DNA from: a virus | Taxonomy: Duplodnaviria; Caudoviricetes | DNA length: 64,000 nt | Reading direction: 5' to 3' (one strand) | Virus record (IMG/VR): IMGVR_UViG_3300032038_000018 | Span: 32,001-96,000 of that record | Part shown: positions 11,893 through 63,146 of the stretch, in pieces | Numbering within the stretch: the first letter of the stretch is position 1 | How the letters are laid out: every line of letters begins with the position of its first letter | Notes under the pieces: generated by a model | The model's database searches: none | Seen by the model: only the letters and a program-made list of their open reading frames with translations | Told to the model about the DNA's origin: nothing | Made by a program: the position numbers and the translations under genes

Positions 11893-12086
11893 TGACTGTA
11901 GATATTAATGAATTCGAAGCTAAGAAAGCTCCTGAGATAAAGACTTGTGAGACATGCAAATGTCTCACCTGTCAATCTGGAAAGTTATGCATTTCCAATG
12001 TATCATGCCCGCATGGAGTTAATTGTTCTATGTGTAATGGTAAGAAACCATTGAGTGAATGCACTTATTATAAATCAAGCTTTTAA
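11892..12086 (+). CDS. Small Cys-rich (metal-binding) protein
   Basis: 9 Cys in 64 aa; start overlaps the recA-like stop. Confidence 0.55.
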   Translation: MTVDINEFEAKKAPEIKTCETCKCLTCQSGKLCISNVSCPHGVNCSMCNGKKPLSECTYYKSSF

Positions 12087-59038: not shown

Positions 59039-59111
59039 AGATATCACTTCCATTTATATTTTATAAGGTTTTTCTTATGATTTCATATATATTTTCAGAA
59101 AGGTGGTTTTT

Positions 59112-59332
59112 AGAAAACTCTACCCCCTCTCCCTCTGCGCACGTGGTCGGTTAAGACCACGTGCGCATTCACCCTCTCCCCCTGTAAAGATGATTTAGGA
59201 AGCCCGAGCCGAGCACACGAAAGCCGCACGAGCGGCGAGGCTCCAGCCCGCGAACGAAAGGGTAGAGTTCGCATGAGAACAAAACGAGCCAGCGAAGCCG
59301 CCGGTGAGCAAGTAGCCAAACAACAGCACCTC
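59112..59332 (-). repeat. DGR-like variable region plus downstream conserved cis element, copy A
   Basis: GC-rich 221-bp gapless repeat of 61159-61379 (offset 2047 bp); hairpin at 59136-59167. Confidence 0.85.
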
Positions 59333-61096
59333 ATAAAGTCCACTCGTTTGGTCTCCACGATAGTAAACCGCGTCGCATAATCCCGTAGTTGCACTTCCAC
59401 CATCACAGTCTATGGTATAACCACCATTATTTAAATCATAATGTATATCTTTACCATGTTTCCAAGTAACGCCTGCCGTAGTATGAGTGAGATATCCTAT
59501 ATCAGTATAATCACTTGATATTGTAGCTGTAGTTTTAGTAACTGCCTTTAAGTCATTTTGTATTAATACATGTGCATTTGTATTACTATCATAACTATAC
59601 ACTGCATTGCCACATACTTCAAGTGTACCTGAAAAAAGTTCTATGCCACTCATTACACTTGGGAATCTGCTATTAACAGCAAAATTACCAACTTCATAAG
59701 TACCGTCTTTGCCAAGTATATCAAGAGAATATCCGGTTTTATATATAGAAGTTTGTACACTACAAGTTGTATCTACTGTAACATTGCTATCTATGTATAC
59801 AAGACTATATGTAGTCTCACCACTAGCACTATATCCTATAACATTACTATTGCCATCATATGCATATAGCGTATAAGTAGAGCCAGTAATATCCAATACA
59901 AGATTTATGTCAACATCGCTAGTTTCAGATGTATTAGGATCTGTATATGTAAATTGTATACTAATATTATTATCATCTAAATCTACTGCATTACCAGTAT
60001 TAGATATCTTCTTGCACAATATATCAAAATCTGTACTACTAGATATACTATAATCTGTATTAGATATGGTAAATCCAGTCTTTACATTCTTAAATAATAC
60101 GATATCATTAGATTTATTTGTAATAGTTGCATTGGAAGCTATATTCATGGATCTTTGATATTGTCTATCAGACTCTGGATTACCTATATCGATTCTAGTA
60201 TCTACATATAATTTATTTGCATCTGTAGTTGTAAGCACTACATAATTCTTATTAGTAGTGGCAGTCTGTATATACAGTCTATTATAATAATAAGAAATTA
60301 ATCCATTCAAATTATTTGCAAAGTTTGTATGGCCGTATTTCATCATGAATATACGCTGTATCATAGCAGCCTGACCCATTGTTATAGATGTCATGTTTTC
60401 ATTTCTAGCATGATACTTATCTACACATGTATTATACGAGGGACCGGTTACTGTGGTAAATGCTTGATGCACCCACGGATATTCACCAGCACTACTATAA
60501 GGAGCGCCATCTATCCATACAGATGGGAATTTAGTTATTGTATAAAATCCCTGGTCTTTACCATTTATATCTTTGCATAAATTATTTAACGTAAATCCGT
60601 CTCTGGGAGTATCTGTCCACTCTATGCACAAATAGTCTGTTCCATTTACGGTTTCTTTATATACCCTCTCATATACTGAAGCGAATAAGCATACTACGTC
60701 TACTTTGCCATAGTAACTAAATCCGGGTTCACCAACTATTGCATCTATTACTATATTGCCATCATCGCCATAGTGTACATTAGCATCTATAGATCTAAAT
60801 ACATTTATATTGGCATAATCATCTCTGCCAGCTACAGTACGTGTAGAAGGTTCTACTACTAAACCTTCATTAGCACCATATTTAGTACCGGCGGGGACGA
60901 TTACTCCAGCACTAGTGTAAGCGAATTTTACTCCATATATTTTTTCGTCTCTATTTGCTGCAAAATATAATTTCAGAAATTCAGATTTATTTTTAAATGG
61001 TAATTTATTTATTTTATTTAATTCTCTCTGTTTAGCTTTATCATTATAATATGATAATAAAGATGAATTAATTAGAGATTTATATTCATTTGCCAT
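59195..61096 (-). CDS. Putative receptor-binding protein with C-type-lectin-like variable C-terminus (DGR target A)
   Basis: Paralogue of 61242-63146; ends LLFG.L..GG.AG.F...AN..LS.A.W..AAR. Confidence 0.8.
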   Translation of the reverse strand: MANEYKSLINSSLLSYYNDKAKQRELNKINKLPFKNKSEFLKLYFAANRDEKIYGVKFAYTSAGVIVPAGTKYGANEGLVVEPSTRTVAGRDDYANINVFRSIDANVHYGDDGNIVIDAIVGEPGFSYYGKVDVVCLFASVYERVYKETVNGTDYLCIEWTDTPRDGFTLNNLCKDINGKDQGFYTITKFPSVWIDGAPYSSAGEYPWVHQAFTTVTGPSYNTCVDKYHARNENMTSITMGQAAMIQRIFMMKYGHTNFANNLNGLISYYYNRLYIQTATTNKNYVVLTTTDANKLYVDTRIDIGNPESDRQYQRSMNIASNATITNKSNDIVLFKNVKTGFTISNTDYSISSSTDFDILCKKISNTGNAVDLDDNNISIQFTYTDPNTSETSDVDINLVLDITGSTYTLYAYDGNSNVIGYSASGETTYSLVYIDSNVTVDTTCSVQTSIYKTGYSLDILGKDGTYEVGNFAVNSRFPSVMSGIELFSGTLEVCGNAVYSYDSNTNAHVLIQNDLKAVTKTTATISSDYTDIGYLTHTTAGVTWKHGKDIHYDLNNGGYTIDCDGGSATTGLCDAVYYRGDQTSGLYEVLLFGYLLTGGFAGSFCSHANSTLSFAGWSLAARAAFVCSARAS

Positions 61097-61158
61097 TATA
61101 AAACACCTCAATGAGAAATATATTTCAAGAAAGAGGTGGAGTGTTTATTTTCAGATTC

Positions 61159-61379
61159 AGAAAACTCTACCCCCTCTCCCTCTGCGCATGTGGGCTCAAC
61201 CGCCCACATGCGCATTCACCCTCTCCCCCTGTAAAGATGATTTAGGAAGCCCGAGCCGAGCAAACGAAAGCCGCGCGAGCGGCGAAGTACCAGGCCGCGG
61301 TCGAAAGGGCAATGTTCGCAAGAGAACAAAACGGGCCAGCGGTGCCGCCGGTGCCCAAGGAGCCAAACAACAGCACCTC
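61159..61379 (-). repeat. DGR-like variable region plus downstream conserved cis element, copy B
   Basis: Repeat of 59112-59332; hairpin at 61183-61214. Confidence 0.85.
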
Positions 61380-63146
61380 GTAGAAACCTGATTTCTGATC
61401 TCCAAGATAGTAAACACCATCACAGAACCCTGTAGTTGTAGATGCACCATCACAGTTATATAATAGACCACCTAATGCTAAGTTATAATGCACGTCTCTT
61501 ACATACTTCCAACTAGTTCCACTCGTAGTATGACTATGATATCCTGTATCTGTGTATTCTGCTGTGATTGTATTCGTGGTTTTAGTGATTGCTCTTAAAT
61601 CATTTTGTAATAAGATATGAACCATAGTGTTACTATCATAATTATAAACTGCATTACCACATACTTCGTTTGTGCCACACATCAGTTCTATGCCACTTAT
61701 TACACTAGGATTCCTCAAACTTGTATTAAATGCTCCGTTAATATAAGAACCATCTTTACCAAGTATTCCGAGAGAATATCCTGTATTATAACACGCACTG
61801 GTCTGAACACTGCATGTTGTATCTGCAGTTATCGGTCTGTCAAAGTATACTGCAGTATAAGTAGTTTCTCCACTAGCACTATATCCTATTACATTATTAC
61901 TGCCATCATATGCATATAGAGTATAAACTCCACCAGTTATGTCAAGTACTAAGTTTATATCTACTGTACTTTCTTCAGATGTATTGGGATCGGTATATAT
62001 AAACTGCATTGTGTTATTATCGTCATCTAAATCTACAGCATCTCCAGTAGATGCTAGTTTCTTACATAAGATATCAAATTCAGATTCACTAGCTATGGTA
62101 TAATTAGTATCGGATATAGTAAATCCAGCTTTTACATTTTTAAATAAAACTATATCATTAGTTTTACCGGTCACATACAAATTTTGGGCTACACTGAATT
62201 GTCTATACGATTGTCTAGCAGACGTCGGATCACCAACATCTATCTGTGTATCAGCATATAACTTATTGGCATCTGTAGTAGTAAGCACTACATAATTTTT
62301 ATTTGTAACAGCAGTCTGTAAATACAGCAATACTTGATAATACGAGGATAGACCATTCAATTTCGTTTGATAGTTTGTATGGCCATATTTCATCATAAAT
62401 ATACGTTGTATCGTAGCTAACTGACCAATAGTCATAGCAGACATATTTTCATTTCTAGCATGATATCTGTCAACACAGTTGTTATATGACGGACCAGCTA
62501 CTCCAGATATATGACCATTTACCCATGGATATCTACCAGCACTACTATAAGGAGCTCCATCTATCCATACAGATGGGAATTTAGTTATTGTATAAAATCC
62601 TTGATTTTTTCCATCTATTCCTTTACATAATATATTTAATGTAAACCCATCTCTGGGAGTATCAGTCCATTCTATACATAGCCACTCTACGCCAGATACC
62701 GTTTCAGTATATATTTTCTCATATACAGGAGCAAATAAGCATACTACGTCTACTTTACCATAATAGCTAAAACCATCTTCACCTTCTAAATAATCTATTA
62801 CAATACTTCCATCTGATCCATAGTGTACATTAGCATCTATAGATCTAAATACATTTATATTGGCATAATCATCTCTACCGGCTACAGTTCTAGTAGATGG
62901 TTCTACAACTAGCCCATTATTAGCACCATACTTAACTCCACCACTAGCTTGGATTACGCCATTAGCATCTTTGGGGAATTTAACCCCATATATTTTTCCG
63001 TCTCTATTCATCAGAAACATTTTGGCTAATTGCTCTGATTTGTCTTTTATATATTGACTCTTTATTAAGTCATCTTCTCTATCTGACTTATTGGAATCGT
63101 ATCTTTCCAATAAGTCAGTATTTATTAATTTACTATAGTCTGGCAT
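61242..63146 (-). CDS. Putative receptor-binding protein with C-type-lectin-like variable C-terminus (DGR target B)
   Basis: Paralogue of target A over its full length; GAGGT RBS. Confidence 0.8.
   Translation of the reverse strand: MPDYSKLINTDLLERYDSNKSDREDDLIKSQYIKDKSEQLAKMFLMNRDGKIYGVKFPKDANGVIQASGGVKYGANNGLVVEPSTRTVAGRDDYANINVFRSIDANVHYGSDGSIVIDYLEGEDGFSYYGKVDVVCLFAPVYEKIYTETVSGVEWLCIEWTDTPRDGFTLNILCKGIDGKNQGFYTITKFPSVWIDGAPYSSAGRYPWVNGHISGVAGPSYNNCVDRYHARNENMSAMTIGQLATIQRIFMMKYGHTNYQTKLNGLSSYYQVLLYLQTAVTNKNYVVLTTTDANKLYADTQIDVGDPTSARQSYRQFSVAQNLYVTGKTNDIVLFKNVKAGFTISDTNYTIASESEFDILCKKLASTGDAVDLDDDNNTMQFIYTDPNTSEESTVDINLVLDITGGVYTLYAYDGSNNVIGYSASGETTYTAVYFDRPITADTTCSVQTSACYNTGYSLGILGKDGSYINGAFNTSLRNPSVISGIELMCGTNEVCGNAVYNYDSNTMVHILLQNDLRAITKTTNTITAEYTDTGYHSHTTSGTSWKYVRDVHYNLALGGLLYNCDGASTTTGFCDGVYYLGDQKSGFYEVLLFGSLGTGGTAGPFCSLANIALSTAAWYFAARAAFVCSARAS

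Follow-up and report, generated by a model that had tools for sequence, protein, structure and literature searches.

A purine-flanked hairpin past the variable regions of diversity-generating retroelement targets in a phage genome: a candidate target-side accessory structure

A 2026 reconstitution study (PMC12875486) names as unsettled the way in which the complementary DNA (cDNA) of a diversity-generating retroelement (DGR) locates its target and gets into it. A 64,000-nucleotide (nt) stretch of DNA, hereafter the window, bears on this question; it corresponds to bases 32001-96000 of the 128,376-bp IMG/VR phage record IMGVR_UViG_3300032038_000018 (judged 52% complete; GC content of the window, 34.5%). 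Within the window, two paralogous DGR target genes, T1 and T2, are each followed, just past their variable region (VR), by a 13-bp hairpin placed between two G-rich purine tracts. What is this element, and what could it do for the retroelement? From its position, its conservation and its analogy with the phage BPP-1, the most likely assignment is to the functional class of the post-VR hairpin/cruciform of that phage. It is probably, then, a DGR target-side accessory structure that would mark the 3' end of the VR as recipient of mutagenised cDNA, and a diverged member of a motif shared by a whole clade of reverse transcriptases (RTs).

The element and the target genes that it follows

On the coding (-) strand, direct reading after the T1 stop codon TAA gives, in this order, ATCATCTTTACA, GGGGGAGAGGG, TGAA, the 13-bp hairpin, GA, GGGAGAGGGGG and TAGAGTTTTCT. 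The same layout is found at T2 (61159-61241), with the arms TGCGCATGTGGGC and GCCCACATGCGCA and the loop GGTTGA, and a third copy lies outside the window, after the third paralogue T3 (genome C1:4463-4545), where the first tract is shorter by one G. In all three copies of the record, the element begins 12-13 nt after the stop codon. The tracts of T1 and T2 are exact mirror images and provide G-runs of 5, 3, 3 and 5, with loops of 3, 38 and 3 nt between them. The flanks of both elements are identical and all their differences lie within the hairpin: two stem changes are both compensated, and the loops are nearly reverse complements of each other. As a matter of fact, the T2 hairpin looks like an inverted version of the T1 hairpin; the hairpin of a related locus, L418, is intermediate between both types and has one uncompensated G-A. 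An earlier, sequence-only reading of the window had described this layout, the mirrored tracts, the four G-runs and the identical flanks, and all of them are confirmed by direct reading.

The arrangement is beyond chance: a relaxed pattern of it occurs at 2 sites of the window (4 overlapping matches) versus 0.01 expected in shuffles. The 9-mer GGGAGAGGG has 6 occurrences in the 128-kb record, every one inside the three post-VR elements, and the record contains 4 quadruplex-type patterns, 3 of which are these same elements. Folded as single-stranded DNA (ssDNA), the hairpin is predicted to reach -17 to -20 kcal/mol on either strand (z -5 to -7), and the purine tracts remain unpaired in the Watson-Crick fold model. 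The 9-mer is its own mirror image and, hence, the 11-nt mirror in T1-T3 is also a 9-nt direct repeat with two outer G per side, so that mirror symmetry in these three copies is ambiguous.

T1 and T2 are tandem paralogues, each with a GC-rich segment at its end, and the three target genes of the record are 73-83% identical to one another. The last ~135 nt of all three match a template repeat (TR), with 18-20 of its 25 adenines changed; in seven VRs (those of T1-T3 and of the related loci L212, L416, L418 and L441) the mismatches affect 17-20 of the 25 TR adenines. The initiation of mutagenic homing (IMH) sequence reads CGCCGCTCG(C/T)GCGGC in the VRs versus TGGGTCTCGTCCTGC in the TR, which corresponds to a GC-rich IMH/IMH* difference. 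The IMH core itself amounts to a 5-bp hairpin (GCCGC-TCGY-GCGGC) with a T-rich run behind it (window 59223-59236 and 61270-61283), and this hairpin is flagged within the coding region by a terminator scan.

No TR is present within the window and, hence, none lies beside T1 or T2. The sole TR of the record (genome C1:4651-4785, i.e., L007:4651-4785) is found ~105 nt past the third element and ~27 kb before the window start, and it is not followed by an element. In consequence of this distribution, the element accompanies VRs both beside the TR and remote from it; the idea that it is a target-side element of the DGR, already put forward from the sequence, is borne out in that it follows each VR, including those of T1 and T2, which lack a neighbouring TR. 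Between T3 and L212, the VR differences fall mostly on TR adenines and are dense, with 13 in the last ~135 nt versus 3 in the preceding ~350 nt, which provides some evidence of recent DGR activity in this lineage.

A motif of one reverse transcriptase clade and its derived form

Related jumbo-phage contigs were reached through homologues of the target proteins. In the loci L089, L213, L442 and L444, GGGG(G)-TGAA-hairpin-GA-GGGGG-loop-CCCCC comes directly after the VR, with hairpins that are unrelated to each other and to those of T1 and T2. The same motif start is seen in L443, a remote target truncated by the contig end. In L213 and L442, the near-identity of TR and VR ends at the first base of the motif, where they diverge, and paralogues without VR in the same loci carry no element. 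A second type of VR-like gene end also exists in these relatives (L089:13811-14011, L090:13481-13681, L444:2743-2903), with another IMH (…CGCGTCCGTCTCTTAACGG…) and no G-run motif; in L444, this second type is followed by a 14-bp AT-rich terminator hairpin, and L089 retains a TR-like remnant of it at ~12010-12060.

Beyond these relatives, pattern scans of IMG/VR found the same frame in many unrelated contigs whose GC content ranges from 0.29 to 0.68. The order of the cassette, in the checked cases, is VR, motif, TR and RT, and in canonical cassettes the motif lies ~60-150 nt upstream of the TR, on the same strand. A DGR-type RT was detected in the fetched flank of 54 of the 68 pattern loci with a hairpin versus 5 of the 42 without it. 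Four unrelated GC-rich loci served to build a covariance model, R1, whose sole matches in the window are T1 (18.8 bits, E 0.009) and T2 (10.9 bits, E 1), both with weak scores; R1 also matches T3 (13.1 bits, E 0.28; likewise weak), L089 and L213, and it has no match in BPP-1.

The frequency of the motif was established in a set of 80 IMG/VR loci chosen by RT homology alone, blind to the motif. A VR upstream of the TR, with adenine-biased mismatches, is found in 70 of these loci, and 66 of the 80 contain a full R1 match: one per locus, always on the RT strand and directly past the VR. The consensus can be written as G4-6-TGAA-T(covarying hairpin)A-GA-G4-5-loop-C4-5-T, and its commonest canonical class has two runs of four G (G4 + G4), the second of them paired to the same-strand C-run. 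Seven more loci (L354 and L373 types) have a hairpin-less variant that keeps G-run 1, a 7-8-nt linker and the helix between G-run 2 and the C-run; in 3 of these 7, R1 matches the helix alone.

Both the sequence of the frame and the pairing of the hairpin are conserved. GGGG-TGAAT and A-GAGGGG are kept in 29 of 29 unique full hits, and the closing T-A pair of the hairpin is invariant. In a larger, pattern-ascertained alignment, 5 of 7 hairpin pairs change on both sides and 98.7% of the cells are paired, a result reached by 0 of 500 shuffles. The stop codon of the target is located anywhere from -22 to +19 relative to TGAA and, therefore, coding does not explain the conservation of the motif; TGAA as a conserved stop codon is rejected on the same grounds. 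The motif lies on the coding strand of the target in every scored hit. Read on the sense strand, most of its hairpin loops are GNA or GNNA, and the internal hairpin mismatches are 3 G-T versus 0 A-C, a weak sign that the sense strand would be the folding strand.

Regarding distribution, the RTs of the gut and environmental phage DGRs with the motif are 30-37% identical to the L213 RT. The corresponding clade comprises 710 protein clusters at E <= 1e-30 (homologues of the L442 RT), mostly from gut phages, and the motif is also present in two uncultured faecal phages with a full-length RT alignment. It is absent from Arawn, FP_Epona, vir215, BKO1-TP3, cr55_1, Perkons, BalMu-1, Versailles, a Vibrio phage and BPP-1, all of them with more distant DGR RTs; in LBR48, it was not found in the fetched part, which lacks the target. 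Judging from these sequences, the motif is specific to one RT clade. Two other features are common in this clade (L324-L403): (i) an A(A/G)GGACTYA box ~60-20 nt upstream of the TR; and (ii) in the spacer, ~150-200 nt past the TR, a helix enclosing YTAGTAR...CGAAAG, which is probably a priming structure.

Searches against Rfam 15 with the window, canonical examples and possible non-DGR instances gave no family at the motif, the sole nearby match being a weak RT-19 downstream in L220. Likewise, no description of the G-run/TGAA/GA/G-run:C-run frame, of its clade restriction or of the mirrored purine version was found in Rfam 15 or in the literature searched, the coverage of which was incomplete. 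The post-VR hairpin of DGRs is a known kind of element; the conserved sequence frame around it is apparently undescribed, in agreement with the earlier impression that the structure matches no described DGR element.

How does the element of the window relate to this motif? The core of the clade motif (G-run 1, TGAA, a T-A-closed hairpin, GA and G-run 2, on the sense strand and just past the VR) is present in T1, T2 and T3. In T1-T3, L212, L418 and L441, the place of G-run 1 is taken by GGGGGAGAGGG and that of G-run 2 by GGGAGAGGGGG, with the extensions AGAGGG and GGGAGA relative to the canonical G-runs. The second helix of the clade motif, AGGGG(G):(C)CCCCT, is lacking, and TAGAGTTTTCT stands at the position of the C-run. 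By this comparison, the form of this lineage is a derived one, in which the G-runs have expanded to mirrored 11-nt purine tracts (15 nt in L416) and the same-strand C-run has been lost. Such membership in a wider motif escaped the sequence-only reading, as did the lack of an RT in the record. The check that it had proposed, namely, the conservation of the G-runs in homologous targets, came out in its favour: the flanking G-runs are conserved there and also across the large RT clade.

The locus L416 deserves separate mention. It is a T1 homologue from another sample (86% identical) and reads GGGGGAGAGGGAGGG, A, a hairpin composed of GGCCGCGCGC, CACCT and GCGCGCGGCC, and then GGGAGGGAGAGGGGG. 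Its hairpin is wholly different from those of T1 and T2, and its purine tracts form a 15-nt exact mirror which is not a direct repeat; therefore, L416 resolves the ambiguity of T1-T3. The homopurine-homopyrimidine mirror repeat is thus exact over 11 nt here and over 15 nt in L416, where the mirror relation of the tracts is preserved through the replacement of all that lies between them, in a single event. In short, the earlier claim of exact mirror images holds for the 11-nt tracts, which in T1-T3 are direct repeats as well, and true mirror symmetry is shown solely by L416.

A scan for other lineages with interrupted G-runs revealed no further mirror cases; a metagenome scan with the 3' flank found one more relative (L441), the other 22 loci being chance matches; and a single-protein search for related loci in IMG/VR found nothing. 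The exact mirrored-tract pattern, searched in IMG/VR, retrieved no relatives, just unrelated multi-copy elements of GC-rich contigs and G-rich tandem repeats. These unrelated, often multi-copy elements (L008-L088; e.g., L018:2302-2349 and L010:3959-4015) have the form CCCCTCTCCCC-N4-GGGGAGAGGG-(covarying hairpin)-GGGAGAGGGG, that is, a pyrimidine tract plus a mirrored pair of purine tracts; the fetched loci showed no RT, and the elements resemble the REP (repetitive extragenic palindrome) type, with a triplex-capable geometry.

Table 1. Positions in the window of the post-VR elements and of the target genes that precede them.
Feature	Position	Strand	Basis and remarks
Purine tract 1, GGGGGAGAGGG	59172-59182	-	Matches G-run 1 of the clade motif; aligned by covariance model R1
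TGAA linker	59168-59171	-	Invariant in the clade motif (29/29 unique full hits of the RT-ascertained set)
Hairpin P1, 13 bp, loop TTAACC	59136-59167	-	Inverted repeat; first pair T-A, as in the clade motif; predicted DNA fold -19.4 kcal/mol, z -5.0; compensated versus T2
P1 arms, TGCGCACGTGGTC and GACCACGTGCGCA	59155-59167 and 59136-59148	-	Direct reading
GA linker	59134-59135	-	Invariant in the clade motif
Purine tract 2, GGGAGAGGGGG	59123-59133	-	Mirror of tract 1; corresponds to G-run 2
3' flank, TAGAGTTTTCT, conserved	59112-59122	-	At the place of the canonical loop and C-run (CCCCCT); C-run absent; compared with L089, L213 and L442
Upstream flank, ATCATCTTTACA	59183-59194	-	Between the T1 stop codon and tract 1
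Second element copy	61170-61229	-	Tract 1 61219-61229, TGAA, hairpin 61183-61214 (loop GGTTGA), GA, tract 2 61170-61180; 3' flank 61159-61169
DGR target gene T1, tail-fibre-like, 638-aa open reading frame (ORF)	59195-61111	-	Stop TAA 59195-59197; ORF list; homologues P0001-P0033; C-terminal VR matches the TR with mismatches at TR adenines
T1 variable region	59198-59330	-	Aligned to the TR at C1:4651-4785; 19/25 TR adenines mismatched
GC-only IMH-like core, CGCCGCTCGTGCGGC, in the T1 VR	59223-59237	-	
DGR target gene T2, 634-aa paralogue	61242-63146	-	Stop TAA 61242-61244; VR ~61245-61377

Possible roles of the element in retrohoming

BPP-1 needs its post-VR hairpin for efficient homing, and it is the structure of this hairpin that matters, not its sequence (PMC3240598). 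The 2026 reconstitution study argues for cDNA pairing with a sense strand that acts as lagging-strand template, and for a stem-loop that prolongs the open state (PMC12875486). The element of the window shares with that of BPP-1 (PMC3240598) an inverted repeat located from a few to a few tens of bp past the VR/IMH, absent after the TR and placed on the cDNA-pairing strand. In both cases, the pairing of the stem is conserved and its sequence is free to vary, here in the form of a 13-bp perfect stem with compensatory changes between copies. But while BPP-1 has tag-CGGGGCC-GAAA-GGCCCCG past its stop codon, i.e., an 8-bp GC stem with a 4-nt GAAA loop and no G-run, TGAA or GA flanks, the hairpin described here is flanked by 11-nt mirrored purine tracts, and the loop of one copy is nearly the reverse complement of the other. 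The element is indeed more elaborate than the BPP-1 hairpin, as had been anticipated. With the canonical clade motif, it shares order, strand and distance from the VR, and it differs from it in its extended G-runs, the lack of a same-strand C-run, a longer hairpin and a larger loop. Group IIC introns are also retroelements that recognise an ssDNA stem-loop by structure and not by sequence (PMC3240598), but their hairpins are intrinsic terminators with U-tracts, whereas the element here has no T-tract and its flanks are conserved in sequence. Actually, an intrinsic terminator was considered for the element and discarded: a terminator scan does not call it, the T-run begins 18 nt past the stem, and a separate terminator follows in L089 and L213.

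If the element is an accessory structure of this class, the following sequence of events could be envisaged. In the sense strand, once unwound or while acting as lagging-strand template, the hairpin and its G-rich flanks would fold into a stable non-B structure just 3' of the IMH. This structure would keep the VR single-stranded, probably by stalling the polymerase that copies the sense strand before it gets to the VR; we infer this stop from the presence of a G-rich structured block on the template. The cDNA would then anneal to the freed VR and be joined at the IMH. The GGGG-TGAAT and A-GAGGGG junctions might provide a defined fold or a binding site matched to the RT clade. In the jumbo-phage lineage, since the G-runs became mirrored tracts and the same-strand C-run was lost, the flanks would act through purine-purine contacts, be it as a G-quadruplex or as a triplex/H-DNA formed with the complementary strand, or else by binding a factor. 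A bolder version, which must be regarded as tentative, is that the targets of the large DGR clade are marked by an undescribed composite non-B fold (a hairpin on a short triplex of G-run 1 with the G-run 2:C-run helix, or an equivalent) that stalls lagging-strand synthesis beside the IMH and has been rebuilt here with H-DNA or a quadruplex.

Several observations weigh against the accessory-structure reading. On the side of the element, it departs from the clade motif, given that the C-run is absent and the R1 scores are low (10.9-18.8 bits). It also differs from BPP-1-type hairpins in its 13-bp stem (versus 7-10 bp) and its 6-nt non-GRNA loops (TTAACC and GGTTGA; CACCT in L416), and L416 lacks the otherwise invariant TGAA and GA. 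Some VR-like ends in the relatives do not have the motif (L089 gene 3, L090) and, thus, it is not indispensable for every VR. The strand specificity of the fold is backed by few data, i.e., the three G-T mismatches and the GNA/GNNA loops mentioned above. Possible instances of the frame, AGGG-TGAA-T(hairpin)A-GA-GGGA, occur outside DGRs in L485 and L491: the first of these loci (- strand, ~2780-2900) has two nested copies of the frame between genes, in AT-rich DNA, and the fetched 14.3 kb yielded no RT; in the second (L491:3380-3500) a 10-nt direct repeat permits two alternative helices. On the side of the retroelement, searches for RVT_1, for YxDD-type ORFs and by tblastn all found no RT in the 128-kb record, which covers 52% of the genome. 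Among the relatives, L442 has its RT behind the T3-like target, and L213, the P0007 contig and L446 have theirs behind the T1-like one; both slots are empty here (window 59053-59195; L007:4546-4884) as compared with L213:11855-13635, L442:4885-6679 and L446. Besides, the TR of the record has drifted, in that the seven VRs share non-adenine mismatches to it (positions 54, 79, 93-97 and beyond); this local TR looks like a remnant. Past it, a terminator-like hairpin and unrelated ORFs are found where the syntenic L442 has its spacer and RT. Among the 120 of the 710 clusters of L442-RT homologues that were listed, none is on the 236-kb contig carrying T1 and T2. The DGR may depend on components supplied in trans by the 48% of the genome outside the record; alternatively, it may no longer function, the elements being relics.

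This last explanation holds that the RT was lost and that the elements are now decaying, their likeness being due to recent duplication or gene conversion; it would account for the missing RT, the two empty syntenic slots and the drifted TR. It is nonetheless less likely, and rather improbable: the flanks are identical in three paralogous copies of genes that are just 73-83% identical and recur in L212, L418 and L441, the stem changes are compensated, L416 keeps the mirror, the T3 and L212 VRs differ mostly at TR adenines (13 versus 3), and only 52% of the genome is in the record. Also less likely, and improbable in its own right, is a role at the RNA level, whether as a stabiliser in the 3' untranslated region, as a processing site or as a roadblock that would stop the RT upstream of the TR in the DGR RNA. 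The canonical motif, ~60-150 nt upstream of the TR and on the same strand, could certainly be part of the template RNA, and a T-rich sequence (TTTTCT) stands here where the C-run was lost, which could still allow G-U pairing in RNA; but the motif is kept at remote targets without adjacent TR (T1, T2 and L443), no U-tract follows the hairpin, which is not called as a terminator (a separate one lies downstream in L089 and L213), and no Rfam match exists. GNA triloops closed by C-G are typically found in stable DNA hairpins, and their presence in the clade motif speaks against an RNA element too. Other RNA-type readings were rejected: (i) kink-turn, hammerhead and HDV (hepatitis delta virus)-like interpretations of TGAA...GA, compared by eye, fail because the G-runs cannot pair mutually, the core sequences misfit and there is no Rfam match; and (ii) pairing of the G-runs with the spacer RNA past the TR is disfavoured by the spacer having its own conserved YTAGTAR...CGAAAG helix, the GGGGT likeness coming from a covarying GC helix that is absent in L213.

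The remaining explanations concern the way in which the flanks would work. H-DNA-forming homopurine mirror repeats and quadruplex-duplex hybrids belong to general nucleic-acid chemistry, and the element shares with them the homopurine mirror symmetry on one strand, the four G-runs and the self-paired central insert; it differs in that its tracts are short (11-15 nt) and its centre is a long hairpin instead of a few nucleotides. In a purine-motif triplex, G-run 1 would lie antiparallel along the helix of G-run 2 and the C-run, forming G*G-C triads on which the hairpin would stack; in this lineage, the triplex would become H-DNA by means of the 11-15-nt mirrored tracts (G*G-C and A*A-T), with the complementary strand as pyrimidine partner. 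It is the sole model that fits all the variants seen, the hairpin-less and the mirrored ones included. The canonical order is that of third strand, linker or hairpin, purine strand, loop and pyrimidine strand; the L354 and L373 types retain G-run 1, the 7-8-nt linker and the G-run 2:C-run hairpin; G-run 1 is invariant though it has no Watson-Crick partner of its own; and the expansions of T1-T3 and L416 are mirror-symmetric, as triplexes require, those of L416 not being direct repeats. Watson-Crick pairing of G-run 1 with the C-run, a possible alternative for that run, was set aside, as it has no supporting covariation beyond the G-run and is inapplicable here for want of a C-run. A triplex is, all in all, unlikely: triplexes of G4-5 are very short, H-DNA usually involves tracts longer than 11 nt and a structured spacer of 38 nt would be unusual for it; the mirror was preserved in one independent event (L416), the T1-T3 mirror being also a direct repeat of a self-mirror 9-mer, and lineages with interrupted G-runs offered no more cases; and a triplex alone leaves the invariant TGAAT and AGAG unexplained.

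In a G-quadruplex-hairpin hybrid, the sense-strand G-runs of 5, 3, 3 and 5 would form three tetrads with the 13-bp hairpin as central loop, thereby blocking replication or signalling recognition. The sequence, G5-AGA-G3-(38 nt, self-paired)-G3-AGA-G5, is capable of it; L416 has still more G-runs; the competing same-strand C-run was lost together with the gain of G-runs; and such patterns are rare in this AT-rich genome, as noted above. Still, this capacity is not conserved: the canonical relatives have two G-runs, most often 4 + 4, the second paired to C4, and for that reason a quadruplex cannot be the general mechanism. It would have to be a lineage-specific replacement of the ancestral role of the flanks, has no need of mirror symmetry and would possess a 38-nt central loop outside the usual prediction limits, all of which makes it quite unlikely. 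The earlier suggestion of a quadruplex-duplex hybrid or H-DNA therefore fails for the quadruplex as a general mechanism, given that the commonest form is G4 + G4 with the second run paired, and retains some ground in the mirror symmetry kept by L416. Finally, the junctions GGGG-TGAAT and A-GAGGGG might be a sequence-specific binding site read by a protein or ribonucleoprotein (the N-terminally extended RT of the clade, or a host or phage factor), with the G-tracts as contacts and not as self-folding units. Conservation in sequence, beyond structure, across loci with a GC content of 0.29 to 0.68 is consistent with such a site, as are the confinement of the motif to one RT clade, with its absence from eleven named phages with more distant RTs, and the contrast between a freely varying stem and its unchanging T-A closing pair. 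However, L416 lost TGAA and GA yet retains the mirrored tracts, mirror repeats are ill-suited to dimeric binders of duplex DNA, and no candidate protein is at hand for the putative partner; a binding site is thus possible, though doubtful.

Implications for target recognition by DGRs

Apart from the IMH, the sole defined target-side signal so far is a hairpin whose sequence reportedly does not matter. The comparison made here adds to it a strictly conserved sequence frame around the post-VR hairpin in one large RT clade, mostly from gut phages, a frame that one lineage has remodelled into mirrored purine tracts. In this way, a vague requirement for a hairpin is turned into specific nucleotides that can be mutated in the existing Escherichia coli assay. 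The motif is also a possible marker for remote DGR targets in metagenomes, and it may aid the engineering of orthogonal DGR targeting. Were the composite non-B fold reading true, this would be the first sequence-defined target recognition signal for DGR retrohoming.

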